Source of the DNA: Saccostrea cucullata
Lineage: Eukaryota
NCBI RefSeq assembly: GCF_032062105.1
Contig: NW_026925976.1
Location: forward strand, 806,001 to 870,000
Direction of reading: 5' to 3'
DNA: 64,000 nt
Position numbers and translations under genes: made by a program. The notes under the pieces were generated by a model, which did not search any database, had not been told where the DNA came from, and saw only the letters and a program-made list of their open reading frames with translations. Each line of letters begins with the position of its first letter. Within the stretch, counting starts at the first letter, position 1. Shown here piece after piece: positions 23,906 through 43,700 of this stretch.

Positions 23906-24004
23906 TCAATCTGATTGAAATTAGATCCTTTGATCCGCTCACGTAAATCGCTACACAAGCGATTTATGTGAACGGATCAAAGGATCTAATTTCAATCAGA
24001 TTGA
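23906..24004. mobile_element. 99-bp foldback MITE
   Basis: Near-perfect palindrome (arms about 47 bp, 2 mismatches) flanked by the direct repeat TGCAATTT (23898-23905, 24005-24012). Confidence 0.8.
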
Positions 24005-28339: not shown

Positions 28340-30200
28340 CATATCAAAAAAGAAGTGGAACAAACACGGATCTCAAAAACAACAAAGGAGTGGAACAAAC
28401 ACGGACCTCAAAAACATCAGAGATTGGTTAAGAGACATGGAGGAGTGAGCATCTCCTGCAAAAGCGTATAAATCTGCCGTATGTTTCTTGTCATGATAGG
28501 GAAATAATCGGATAAAAATACGTGTACAACTCAGTGTGTAAATAATGGCAATCAATATGACAAACCGTATTTGCTGACAAGGTCATTGTATCGACCATAA
28601 AAGTTGAAATGAAGACTTTAAAAGAGACTGCTGATATTCTTCCTTCATCAGTTTGTTTGTCAATAATTTAATACATGCACCTTGTTTGTTAGAAATTTGT
28701 TCATACGTAGAACATGCTTTTTCCTTTTCGAATCAACTGAAAGTTACATGTATGTACTCTGATTTCAAGTGACAAAGATAAATTACTGCATACGTAAGGG
28801 AAACTGACGATTGAAAAGTTAAAGTCATCACGTTTATCATAAAGCTTTGTTGTTAGACAGCCATTAACGTCTTTTTCAAGTAGCAGATCCAAAACTGAAA
28901 CAGATGTGTCAGACTCTGTGGTATCTTTTATTTCAATTTCACCGGGATATATCATGTCGACATAGGAATGGAAATAACTATTGATAAATATCAAACATTT
29001 GTATATGAAATGTTCAACAGTAAATCACCAAAAATGGCAAATCCAATACAAAAAGACATTTGCAATATCCTAGTGCAAAAGATTTTAAGAACATCTACAT
29101 CCAGAAATTTATTTGTAGACAAACATCTCGTTTTCTTCAAAACATTTGTACATGAACGAGGTAGATCCATTCCAGGAATGTTAAAAAATATATTCAACGG
29201 CAATTTCAATTTTAAAAGAGAAAGACATATTTTCTGATGAAATGACCATATCGTTAGATGCATTGCTTGAGTCCTCATGTTTGGGACAGGGATCACAAAC
29301 TTTCATCTCTTTCATACACTTGCCTTCACCTGAATCCCCCATATTCCCATGATTTTTTTTTCAATTATTCTATGCTGCTGTTCATTGTTTGTTCAATTGT
29401 AGGATCAAAATGTAATAGATTTGCGGCATGTTCTTCTCGGTTATTAGCTCTTCCTCAATCTCAGCTTCATACAAGCAGATCGCCTCTGTTTTTTCCAAAG
29501 AATGGTTCGTATAGTGTCCCTTAAATCCTGATTGTTCACAAAGATTTGTGATAGCTTTTGTCAATACTTGATCACCAACTTCAGAATCTGCATATCTGGA
29601 GGTTTCTGTTTGTGCCTACCTTCCTCAGAGTATTTACCACTTTTTGGTCTGTATTTTCAATTAAGAAATATATGCAGCCATCAGATGAGGACATCTTTAC
29701 TCATTACGGGTTAGATGGAAGAAGTCAAAAATCAAGTGATATATTTCAATCTAAATTTACCTGACACTATCTATTCAGTTCAACAATATATATATTTTTC
29801 ACCCTTTTGTTTTCATCTCTCACTCTCCAGACAATCAGGTGCGATACATTACCATGAAAAAGAACCATCACCTGGGACAGTTTATAAAGTAAACAATAAA
29901 AAAAATGTTTTTAGTAGGATAAAGCCCCAAACCTGTTCTTTCTGTGAGAGAAAAAACTATTCTCGACCCTCAGGGCCTCAAATAGTGTTTTACTTTTATA
30001 GAAAGGACAGTTTACTTAATTGACAATCCGTCGTCTATATATGTTAATGTCGAGTTGAATGCCACAACAAGCATTTTCTTTTTTCACGTATAAAACAAAG
30101 TTGCACTAGTAGAACAAATTCTGCTTCATATGAATGAAAAAAAGGTCTGCTTATAAATTTAAAAAGAACAAAATAAAAAGAAAACGGCAGAAAAGGCAAA
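28340..30200 (-). mobile_element. Penelope-like retroelement remnant, split by a Crypton-like insertion
   Basis: Translation IYPGEIEIKDTTESDTSVSVLDLLL..LTTKLYDKRDDFNFSIVSFP..SN matches the C-terminal part of Penelope-type RT; uninterrupted paralog at 37730-38345. Confidence 0.7.
28985..30021 (-). mobile_element. Crypton-type (DUF3504-like) tyrosine recombinase element remnant
   Basis: Minus-strand fragments RCPHLMAAYIS and LCEQSGFKGHYTNHSLEKTEAICLYEAEIEEELITEK resemble the Crypton YR G..TNHSLR.T....LY.A...E..I region. The block is absent from the paralogous site near 38230 and begins AATTAAG followed by a foldback. Confidence 0.65.
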
Positions 30201-33399: not shown

Positions 33400-34130
33400 G
33401 AACAAACACACGGACATCTAAACATAAAAATTAAAGGTAGAATCCTGTGCAGTCTCCCCTTCACCGATCATACCCACCTTGTGTTCCTTGTCATGATCGG
33501 GAAATAACGGTCAAATCCGTCGAAAATTCGGTTTGTATATAATTGCCTAACAATTGTTATCAAAAAGTCAGCCAACATATGACTTATAAGAATGTATTTT
33601 CCGACAAGGTCATTGTATATATCTATCATCAAATTTACGAAATGACTTTAAACAAGACTGCTGATGTTCTTTTTTATCATCTTCCGTGTAAATATTTTAC
33701 CTCGTTTTAGAAATCGTTTAGACTTAGAGCATGCTCTAAGCATTGATATAAACCCTCTCATACAAGTTAGTGATGGAGGTTAGTTGCTGCATAATGAAGG
33801 GAAGTTGACGATTGGAGTAAAATATCTAAATATGAAATTAATGTGTCAGATTCTGCGGTATCTTTTATTTCAACCATACCTGGATATATCGTATCAACGT
33901 AAGAAAGAAAGTAACCATTGTTTATTGATAATTAGTCGGTGAGATATCTAAATGTCGAATTGTTGCCCAAACCAAGTGTCTTTTACGTACAAGATTTTGA
34001 AATAAAGAAATCTGTTTCATATGAATGCACAAACAGATCTGATCCGCAAATAACGGGGTCCAGCTGGTATCAATGGGAATTCCAATAGATTGTTGGAATT
34101 AAAACCTGTTCTCCAAAAACCACATACTAG
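33400..34130 (-). mobile_element. Penelope-like remnant
   Basis: Colinear similarity to 28340-28985 (ACAAACAC.GGAC, GACAAGGTCATTGTAT, GTGTCAGA.TCTG.GGTATCTTT). Confidence 0.55.
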
Positions 34131-37729: not shown

Positions 37730-38345
37730 AAATATATGGTGACAACGAACAGTATTCGAGCTCAAAAGTCCAGTAAACATTACAAAAAAGGAGCGGAGCA
37801 AACAAGGACCTCAAAAACATCACAGGTTGGTACCATGGAAGAGTGAGCATCTCCTGCCAAGCGGTCAAATCCGCCGCATGCTTCTCGTCATGATTGGAAA
37901 ATAATGGAAAAAAAATCCGTGGACAACACAATGTGTAAATACTCCAGTAATGGCCTAATAATCAATATTATTTATATTTGCTGAAAGGTCATTGCATCGA
38001 CCTTAGAACTTACGAAATGATGACTTAATTAAACGAAACTGTTAACAAAGGTATGTTACTGACTATCTAATGGAAGGTAACAATTGAAAAGTTAAAGTCA
38101 TCACGTTTATCATAAGGCTTTGCTATTAGATTACCATATGTCTTTTCCTAGCAGATGTGTCAGACTCTGTGGTACCTTTTATTTCAAGCTCACCGGAATA
38201 ATTCGTGTCAACATGAAAATGGAAATAACCTTGTTAATTGACAATCCGTCTTCAATATATCTAAATTTCGAGTTGAAAGCCACAACAAGCGTTTCTCTTG
38301 TTCACGTATACAATTTTAAACAAATTCTGTTTCATATTAATACGA
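37730..38345 (-). mobile_element. Penelope-like remnant (paralog of 28340-30200 without the Crypton insert)
   Basis: Shared TTGAAAAGTTAAAGTCATCACGTTTATCATA and AGATGTGTCAGACTCTGTGGTA blocks. Confidence 0.65.
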
Positions 38346-40769: not shown

Positions 40770-43700
40770 TTAGTTTTTCCAAGAACAGTTGTACCCAGAG
40801 TAACCAGGTTTGCATCCATGAAGACAAAACGTAGTAGTTATGTCACAACTTCCGTCTCCCCCGCAGTTTCTGGGACAGGTGCCTCTACATGAGAACCCCC
40901 TGTATCCTGGCTTACATCCATCATCACAAAACGAAGTATACCTATGACACAACAACAAAAATAAGATGCTCATGGACCCTAACCGCAGATTTCTTCTCCT
41001 ATATTTTCATATGTAAAGCTGTCATATGCAAAGCTTTGATCACCTGTTCTTTGCACAACAGGTGCCATGTTTTGGAGAAAATTGAATCTAAACGTTCTGA
41101 AGATAGATGCTTCTATATTCATATGACATATTTTGGCTTAGTATGTTCTTGAAAATAGACTTTAAAAGATGTCTGAAACTCTACCCTGTGGCGTGGGGGG
41201 TTGGAGTTGATTTGAGCAAAATTGAACCTACACTACCTGGGTATGCTTCCATATTCATTTAACAAATGCATGACTATTGTTCTGGAGAAGAAGAATTTCA
41301 ATGATGTTTCATATACGGTTTATTTGTATAATTTTGACCCATCCAACTACTGGGGAATGCCTTGAACAAATGTGAATCGCCAATACTTGGGGATGCTTCC
41401 ATGTCAGTTTGACTTATTGCTTTGTTTTTGAAAATATTTTTCCTGCACTTTCCTATGTAAGACTTTGATCCTCCACTGTGGCTCCACCCTACCTCAAGGG
41501 GTCATGATTTGAGCATTATTGAATATTCACTACCTAGGAATAATTCCGCATCAAATTGACTATAATAGTAACTTTGTTTTTTTTTTTTAAGTTTGTTAAT
41601 TTAAAATGATTAATATTTTATAGAAAACTTTTATTGTGGTTCCACCATACCCACGGGAGTCATGATTTGAACAAACTTGAATCTTATAACAGTACATGAG
41701 GATGCTTCAGATTGAACATGACTAATTCCGACTTTGTTGTGCTTAAGATTTTTAAAGATGATTCCATTTATTATACTTCTGTTAAAATGTTTCCTTTATA
41801 AAGTTCAGAAGTTAAAATAGCTATCCTTTATAGTTCACGCATAGCAAAGCTATACCCCGGGGTATAGTTTTAATTTGCTATCCACCCTCGGAAAATTTTC
41901 ATACAATTGTTGCCTCCAAATTTTGATTTCCAGCGATAAATCTATTGACTGATGATAAATCTTTAAATGATGATGTCATAATGACTTAAGTAGCATTGTG
42001 ACGTCACCAGGATTTCAGATTATTCTTGCAGAATAATCTTAATTCAAAAAAATTCAAACCTCAGAAATTATATTATACATCAGTATAAAAAGCGCTTATG
42101 CACTGGTTGTGAGTAGGATAGCTCTTTTATCAAACCCTTGACAGGAACTATTCCCCTCGGGCAAGCCCTCGGGGAATAGTTCTCTGTCGCGGGTTTGATA
42201 AAAGAGCTATCCCACTCACACCCAGTGGACGTATAATATCTTATATTTGCATATCCACTGCTCTCTCTCACTATGAACCTGCAGACTTTAACTGCATTCA
42301 TAGCTCTATGAACGCAACTGCTCTTGCTATGAGTGCTCTCATTGCTCTTTAGCACTCGTGTAGTACAAGCTCTTCTACACTCCTAAGTCGTGTTGAGAAG
42401 TATATATACGAAGTGTTTAGTCAAAGGAATAAATGTAAACTTTTTAATAATAATTTTTGGAAAAAAAGAAATTCAGAACAATTTAGAATTGCTGTTTTAT
42501 ATCTTTAAAAATTTAATTTTTGCCAATGTATTTAATTGTATAATAAAATTTTTTTAAAATTGAAAAGAATTGCCATATTTTTATTTTTTCTTATCATATT
42601 TTTGCATATTTGTACAAAGAACGATAACTCTTCACACAAGGGTGATAAAACATTCAGGAAAAGCAAAATTTCTTTAATTTAATAGTTTGTCTATTTCAAG
42701 AACAGTTTCAGCTCTTAAAAATAAATAGGAAAAAAAACATATAGAAAAACATTCTGGAGTTATAATGATTATTAAAGCATTCTCTTTTCATCAAACGGCT
42801 GTATTATTGATTTTTGTCAGAGGGTTTCAATAACGTTGATCGATGACGTCACATCTGCATCAAAACAAAAATTAAGAGAATGTAACGACGGCGCAGATTG
42901 TATCTAGATAACTGTGTTTTAAAAGAGGCTACTACTTTATAAATTGTTTGTGATTTATTAGAGAAAAGGTGCAATGATCAGGTATACTAATTTTAAAGCC
43001 GTGTGTTTTTCTTTACTGAAGACAACAAGCCACATCCTTACGTAAGCCAGGATTTCCTCTGATATTCTTGACAACATCAAAGAATGCAAATATAAGTAAT
43101 AAACAACGATTATTTAGTGAACATGGCGTTATGAATAGCAATAGCTCTGCTGGCATATTATCCATGATGCGCTAACGCGCATCATGGAATATGCCAGCAG
43201 AGCAATTGCTATTCATAACGCCATGTTCACTAAATAATGTTGTTTATTTCTTAAATGTAAAACTTAATCCTCCATTGTGACCCAATCTTATGCTTGAGTT
43301 CCTGATTTGAACAAACTTCATTCTTCAAGTTTCTAGTCCATTATTTCTTGAGAGGATGATTTAAAAAAGTTTACATCTAATTCTTATTAATTTTTAATTA
43401 TTTCCATTCATTTCAACTGAAAAATTTGAATATCCCTTCACACAAGGATGCTTTTTGACAACGTTGGTCAAAATTGGCCCAGTAGTTCTTAAGACGATGA
43501 CCCAAAAATGTTTTACAGACAGACAAATTAACAGACGGACGCCAGATAAAATGTAGTCAGAAAAGGAGAGCTAAAAATCACTGATTATAAAATACTGTAG
43601 CAATTCAAATGGATTTGTGTCCCCATGAAATTTTATTATTAATGATTATGATTCATGTTTATAATAAGGATTATAATTCCAATTTACATACCTGCTACAA

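Follow-up and report, generated by a model that had tools for sequence, protein, structure and literature searches.

The question raised by this locus is whether the ends of an animal tyrosine recombinase (YR) transposon are built to recombine as duplex DNA or as a folded single strand. The window, by which we mean the whole 64,000-nucleotide stretch of Saccostrea cucullata DNA that was analyzed, carries an insertion in which a degenerate fold-back lies next to fragments of a YR gene, and an earlier note on this DNA had read the two together as a Crypton that may recombine through a folded strand. The insertion is a dead, truncated, non-autonomous copy of a CryptonA transposon. From its relatives we conclude that the ends of these elements are likely arranged so that one DNA strand folds into a YR recombination site. 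The element class is known, while the design of its ends appears to be undescribed.

The limits of the copy were set by the empty paralogues and by alignment with full copies of its family, here called family W:

28984..30015, minus strand: decayed, 3'-truncated copy of family W, a non-autonomous CryptonA of about 1.3 kb
38222..38245, minus strand: empty paralogous site
30016..30019, minus strand: host target TTAA, with the same TTAA at the empty site; the crossover lies between 30016 and 30015
28978..28984, minus strand: truncated right junction, where the element ends at an internal TTAT and the host restarts at the crossover with no loss

Alignment within the window shows the insertion to be missing at 38233/38234, which bears out the absence near 38230 given in the earlier note, and at a second empty paralogue near 33920. 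The limits of 28985..30021 proposed there are corrected to 28984-30015, since the TTAA belongs to the host target and the first base of the element is a G. The copy corresponds to positions 34-1071 of a full family W copy. At least 29 further loci of this family, 74-77% identical, are present in the same genome (40 of 222 candidates scored), and 23 of the 24 copies in which both ends were found measure 1241-1364 nt. The window copy therefore lacks the last ~260 nt, with which the second palindrome and the true far terminus are gone, as well as 16 nt of the outer hairpin arm. At 28984 the stop at an internal TTAT fits the target consensus described below and all host bases are kept; in this single case the YR could have made the deletion at a cryptic site, or microhomology repair could have done so. 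The target itself lies in a decayed fragment (28701-28983, minus strand), whose translation we take to resemble the C-terminal part of a Penelope-type reverse transcriptase. The surrounding minus-strand region (17000-48000) is a tandem array of 8-10 kb units, and its exons, judging from their translations, presumably encode Cys-rich EGF-like repeats and a C-type-lectin-like domain.

Three pieces of a YR gene were recognized within the copy:

29433..29546, minus strand: YR C-terminal remnant with box II, the His retained and the Arg gone (protein match)
29366..29434, minus strand: YR remnant covering the second His and the region of the catalytic Tyr, read in a different frame and interrupted by a stop (weak match, E 0.04; sister copies E 1e-22)
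29678..29694, minus strand: YR start remnant MSSSDG (weak match to the N-terminus of family A; 6 of 8 copies tested)

The remnant is genuine: it shares 25 of 38 residues with exon 2 of the intact family A element (pairwise E 2e-16), and tblastn matches it to a DUF3504 open reading frame of the same genome (E 3e-13). In a Pfam search the 77-residue window peptide alone matched no YR model, whereas its intact genomic relatives matched both DUF3504 and Phage_integrase. The string RCP..YIS, taken earlier for a YR motif, had to be rejected as such: it uses the same bases as the MSSSDG start, read in a different frame, and is probably the start codon region out of frame. In the parent the real RCP motif comes ~320 residues after the start, and it was not detected in the short copies. 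The short family is thus an internal deletion derivative, in which the MSSSDG start is fused to box II and the His and Tyr region. Families A and W are 72-83% identical in the hairpin, the 3' palindrome and the terminus, which makes family A, on sequence grounds, a close relative and a plausible mobilizer of family W rather than its direct parent.

A search of the genome with DUF3504 gave 151 matches, and 100 regions around such matches were taken for study. Intact autonomous elements were among them and bear the hairpin, so that the link between hairpin and tyrosine recombinase made in the earlier note holds. The intact parent reading frames retain the R-K-HxxR-H-Y residues, two of them with Thr at the box II His position. 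The four that were scanned match PF12012, PF25561 and PF00589, the first and last of these above cut-off, and no other Pfam family. A structural model of the YR (mean pLDDT 92, from a 94-sequence alignment) is nearest to Cre (Z 20.1, rmsd 4.9 over 291 aligned residues) and scores lower against the integron integrase 2a3v (Z 15.2), both values being whole-fold scores only. Integron integrases read extrahelical bases by means of an I2 helix insertion. The autonomous elements are 1.9-2.7 kb long and their long reading frames are YR exons; reverse transcriptase, RNase H, gag and a C-terminal GCR1_C domain are absent from the full-length elements (review of reading frames; Pfam for four of them). 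No Rep/helicase HUH transposase was noticed, and the full-length elements have no room for one. The two ends of an element are not inverted copies of each other. We use the label CryptonA on the strength of a DUF3504-type YR, intact R-H-R-Y residues in autonomous members and the lack of both terminal inverted repeats and target duplication, the only tree being one of our own reading frames, apart from Repbase CryptonI, V and H.

These elements agree with the published description of CryptonA, as far as the available text of PMC3212892 goes, in the single DUF3504-type YR gene with no C-terminal domain, in the animal host, in the abundance of non-autonomous copies and in the absence of terminal inverted repeats and target duplications. 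That account (Kojima & Jurka 2011, PMC3212892) gives animal Cryptons no terminal repeats, direct or inverted; the present elements differ in having a long terminal hairpin and an internal complement of the joined ends.

The hairpin in the window copy consists of the following parts:

29914..30015, minus strand: terminal hairpin, the outer 5' arm short by 16 nt that include a 2-nt bulge and the outer GA
29960..29982, minus strand: hairpin tip, with tandem GA/GA (29979-29978 with 29964-29963), a 5-bp stem and a 3-nt loop

The fold-back with GA opposite GA beside the loop, as first noticed from the letters, is therefore present on the minus strand at 29914-30015. The tip loop, GAA in family W, has decayed to TGA here. 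The fold-back of this one copy is weak when scored by itself (z from -1.0 to -1.7 for the minus strand and from -1.7 to -2.6 for the plus strand), so the case depends on the family and not on this copy.

For this reason families were compared. Clustering of 98 loci gave 22 multi-copy groups, 13 of which were used together with family W, making 14 families; the other nine were dropped for want of an end or because their copies had arisen by segmental duplication. Ends were set where independent copies cease to align, the hairpin end of family E coming from one copy. The hairpin lies 5' of the gene and on the coding strand in 8 of the 14 families and 3' of the gene, on the non-coding strand and with other end sequences, in the remaining six. 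The expectation that it would always sit on the coding strand just inside a TAAG end was consequently abandoned. A tree of 24 partial reading frames places one change in the side of the hairpin, with weak support (67/91), and a strict scan of 40 loci for GA-stem-loop-stem-GA placed the motif ahead of the YR, on the coding strand, in 15 and behind it, on the opposite strand, in 2. Among 80 metagenome loci, too, long palindromes ahead of the YR are common.

Mismatches within the stems point to the folding of one strand. An A·G mismatch on one strand is a C·T on the other, and neutral decay in duplex DNA should produce both equally. Among 93 mismatches read on the hairpin strand, there were 56 A·G, 13 G·T, 7 T·T, 6 A·C, 5 G·G, 4 C·T and 2 A·A. 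The excess of A·G over C·T (binomial 9e-13, families not being independent) thus argues for selection on the fold of one strand; the corresponding comparison of G·T with A·C (13 to 6, p 0.17) is not significant. Tandem GA pairs are stable in a Py-GA-Pu context, and they occur in RNA as well. The loops on the hairpin strand are C-GNA-G or C-GNNA-G in 11 of the 14 families, and the other three have loops of the types C-TT-G, G-CTTG-C or C-TTT-G, which are also stable in DNA. Mini-hairpins of the C-GNA-G and C-GNNA-G kind are far stabler in DNA than in RNA and are found at single-strand origins and priming sites, according to the part of PMC13037366 that treats them. All eight 5'-hairpin families have a 2-nt bulge 2-4 nt beyond the crossover, and in six of them a second GA/GA stands exactly 16 nt in; families L and Q have no GA/GA, and K has no outer GA/GA. 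An imperfect palindrome with strand-specific marks around the crossover is therefore present. Calculated fold energies favor the hairpin strand only slightly and are reversed in 2 of the 14 families (M and Q). Folding parameters probably give no credit for sheared G·A pairs.

Several other palindromes were observed. A second one, without GA/GA marks, occurs ~70-200 nt before the far end in L002 and family W and also in families A, C and E. Elsewhere in the window, a long plus-strand hairpin at 59050-59219, with two GA/GA mismatches and a GTTA loop, is likely the end of a different Crypton derivative. Long minus-strand hairpins occur at 42101-42227 (GA/GA and a CTTG loop) and 43109-43238 (GTTA loop on that strand), and a similar element is inserted in L011. 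A 47-bp near-perfect palindrome at 23906-24004 does not have the GA/GA design. The metagenome families L174, L182, L183, L197, L220 and L225 have hairpins of 200-250 nt with many mismatches and ends GAC or AAC, and apparently use a different target.

A further result concerns a short segment at the base of the hairpin, which we call the foot:

29902..29913, minus strand: foot, 12 nt complementary to the far terminus of family W; 11 of 12 positions carry the family majority base, with a column conservation of 0.99 over 26 copies

Along the strand that opens with the hairpin, the initial 45-80 nt are paired with an internal arm, after which comes the foot, 10-13 nt that pair with the terminal bases at the other end of the element, so that foot and adjoining arm are together an internal complement of the joined ends. 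Pairing of end and foot was found in all 14 families tested, with 10-13 Watson-Crick pairs of 13 (mean 12.1), compared with a mean of 5.4 and a maximum of 11 in a cross-family control of 170 pairs. The foot is also the best complement of the end among ~1,250-2,700 positions per element, with one tie. One end type is common to four families, and the 14 families thus represent 11 distinct types. Since the far end pairs with the foot, the joined ends would form one stem around the crossover, and in folding calculations they do fold into a single stem with the crossover inside. Among the dropped groups, a matching foot is visible by eye in H and P, and no hairpin was seen in the stretches of R, U and V that were inspected. 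In metagenome data 8 of 9 multi-copy groups tested gave 6-12 pairs of 13, several with G·T wobbles, the foot or the end having been placed by hand in five of these eight families (the end of L207 was reset) and two of them sharing one end; an exact-match search located the foot in three of the eight.

Insertion junctions provide another line of evidence. Among 64 distinct left flanks, collected by start motifs and hence a biased set, the three bases ahead of the element were T in 58, A in 62 and then A in 28, T in 26, C in 10 and G in none, the next base being G in 61; the target consensus from these junctions is TA[ACT]^. All of 25 distinct family W flanks, which were chosen by body similarity, retain the element start. 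In 60 right flanks the element ends in TAA (CAA in family D), the last base is A in every case, and host-like bases follow. At 36 of the 64 junctions the third base of the target is not that of the element, and family D, ending in CAA, inserts at TA[AT]. Bases of the element start were seen at none of the 60 right junctions, one head-to-tail tandem excepted. In one locus, removal of a nested copy exactly restores the reading frame of a host YR gene with no duplication. This junction pattern indicates one crossover, no duplication and no requirement for homology. A staggered double exchange without homology would be expected to leave element-start bases at the right end of some copies. The junctions fit a single exchange, and biased repair could produce the same pattern.

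The locus with this nested copy, L068 (G000:C16673:15401-25400), is a three-deep nest: a Crypton derivative sits within a YR gene, and its foot is in turn interrupted by a ~1 kb element, which has inverted ends of 13 bp and a TTAA duplication. Recombination at the foot was considered for this locus and rejected, the arrangement being a nested inverted copy plus a separate element inside the foot. Tandem copies were also looked for. A pattern search for the exact family W head-to-tail junction found none, and a looser pattern hit three places against two in a reversed control, two of the three being real and one a chance match. Copies are joined head to tail in L065 and L241, and L189 and L183 apparently have such junctions too. 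Paired autonomous copies, inverted or direct and from a few hundred bases to a few kb apart, occur at L064 (G000:C20375) and L074, and DUF3504 pairs at C3634 and C6158; such close pairs suggest local hopping.

Based on these observations we lean towards a model in which the element moves as a folded single-strand circle by one strand exchange with replicative resolution. The hairpin strand would be exposed, probably at a replication fork, a guess by analogy with attC and IS608 that is made because the elements encode neither a helicase nor a Rep. Both ends would be splinted by the foot and joined by the YR into a single-strand circle, which in its folded state would exchange one strand with a duplex TA[ACT] target. 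Host replication would then resolve the junction, as it does at CTXphi attP(+) and integron attC. Choosing the strand and blocking a second exchange would fall to the GA/GA pairs, together with the 2-nt bulge and the loops of the mini-hairpins, and the hairpin tip may prime second-strand synthesis. The folded-strand idea of the earlier note thereby gains indirect support from the covariation of end and foot, the strand-biased mismatches and the one-point junctions. Several points count against this model: no joint of element end to element start appeared in the reads surveyed for family A, fold energies favor the hairpin strand only slightly, G·T and A·C mismatches show no significant bias, some families have no GA/GA or no outer one, the lack of base preference past the right junction means that the strand would be exchanged without homology, the modeled YR is nearer to Cre than to the integron integrase, and the window copy folds no better on the predicted strand.

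The best surviving alternative, which we consider unlikely, is a splint like that of DIRS elements, where foot and arm close a single-stranded circle that is then made duplex and integrates by an ordinary two-step YR reaction. An internal region complementary to the joined termini, a DIRS feature, is present here, and in DIRS-1 such a region (ICR) is complementary to both joined termini and essential for retrotransposition, as reported in the text available from PMC7192593. The same source, in what it covers, describes further likenesses, namely single-stranded DNA intermediates, a YR and insertion beside existing copies, and models DIRS integration as that of a duplex circle with trinucleotide homology, which differs from the junctions found here. 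The present elements also differ from DIRS-1 in having no reverse transcriptase, gag or long inverted LTRs, and in their complement, a short one, 10-13 nt correspond to the far end, at a distance of ~100-170 nt from one end of the element. A splint of this kind accounts for all the strand-specific folding features, and mini-hairpins are known at priming sites (PMC13037366, in part). However, the third base differs between target and element in more than half of the junctions and in family D, carried-over overlap bases would be expected in a part of the copies and none are seen at the junctions, and the fixed bulge and the GA spacing beside the crossover are left without a role. A single-strand intermediate closed on the foot is common to this alternative and to the model that we prefer, and we consider such an intermediate highly probable.

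A second alternative dispenses with free single-stranded DNA: a duplex circle excises, its palindrome extrudes as a cruciform under supercoiling and the YR uses one arm. The palindrome in such a circle would be 55-95 bp long, attC sites are described in the portion of PMC8946536 at hand as forming by either route, and a duplex circle is the standing model in the review text available (PMC13565253). Formation of the circle is nevertheless left unexplained by this route, whereas pairing of foot and end is a direct one-strand splint, and no circle junction was seen in the reads surveyed for family A. We regard it as improbable. In that survey, the joint of element end to element start was absent from 629 raw reads (organism D run) and from the contigs of three more runs, and neither a single-strand nor a circular form was seen. 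Two DNA runs covered the hairpin end ~5-20 times more deeply than the gene, which fits many short derivatives, and an RNA run gave a 1610-nt contig across the gene, from a library that may include DNA.

Hardly probable, finally, is the view that the repeats are duplex protein-binding sites or RNA structures (asymmetric terminal repeats, a promoter or a silencing hairpin), which the occurrence of tandem G·A pairs in RNA would suit, because duplex sites offer no reason for the 56 to 4 bias, six of the 14 families have the favored strand antisense to the gene and the loops are of a DNA-stable type. Helentron-type Helitrons too have short asymmetric terminal repeats and hairpins (PMC8969392, in the sections seen), but the long reading frame of each autonomous element examined here is a YR and no HUH reading frame was noticed.

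Comparison with other systems places the preferred model, the folded circle with one strand exchange, among known reactions. In the description of CTXphi attP(+) and XerCD given in the available part of PMC3442271, a stem is formed by two inverted copies of the site and has unpaired bases next to the crossover, a single strand is exchanged and head-to-tail tandem copies arise, all as proposed or seen here. The elements differ from CTXphi in having their own YR, a target limited to TA[ACT], no Rep or virion and a site that arises only once the ends join; the overlap region of CTX is partly homologous (PMC3442271, same part), and no overlap homology is seen here. The attC sites used by IntI, as far as described in the text seen of PMC8946536, are likewise imperfect palindromes of variable sequence with structural marks on one strand and a crossover near the stem base, and share the replicative resolution proposed here. 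In contrast, the marks of the present elements are tandem GA/GA and a 2-nt bulge, and the YR fold is nearer to Cre than to IntI. Helentron/Helitron2 and IS200/IS605 elements resemble them in asymmetric terminal repeats, strand-specific hairpins, single-stranded DNA intermediates and the lack of target duplication (PMC8969392 and PMC13565253, both in part), but use an HUH nuclease where a tyrosine recombinase and much longer hairpins are found here. Strand-biased SE elements (PMC9345347) and Replitrons (PMC10288648) are described in the parts available of two further papers.

Our literature search found no paper on Crypton hairpins, on this end architecture or on single-strand Crypton recombination; it covered publications, and the hairpins may be catalogued already in Repbase, in Dfam or in reviews. 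A 2026 review (PMC13565253), in the text available, takes a duplex circle for granted and notes that experimental proof of Crypton transposition is lacking. The accessible portion of the 2026 Glomhopper paper never mentions hairpins, palindromes or single strands (PMC13465315), and that of Kojima 2018, which ties Eulor5/6 to Crypton termini, leaves hairpins unmentioned (PMC5753468).

Taken together, the results lead us to suggest that the animal CryptonA elements are eukaryotic single-strand transposons driven by a Cre-like YR, self-splinted, moving as a folded circle and inserting by a homology-free single exchange at a three-base target, a proposal that we hold to be evenly balanced between right and wrong. 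Since substrate, strand, crossover base and target all follow from the end design, the proposal is testable with oligonucleotides and one small enzyme. If true, folded-strand recombination by a YR, a route familiar from bacteria through CTXphi attP and attC, would extend to animals as a eukaryotic counterpart of the integron and CTX systems. It would also tie Crypton ends to the DIRS ICR, which is suggested to work alike, and would supply a rule for locating Crypton boundaries. It would further suggest a compact integrase, made of one protein, that accepts single-stranded donors, and would provide context for the human DUF3504 genes and the Crypton-derived Eulor5/6 repeats.
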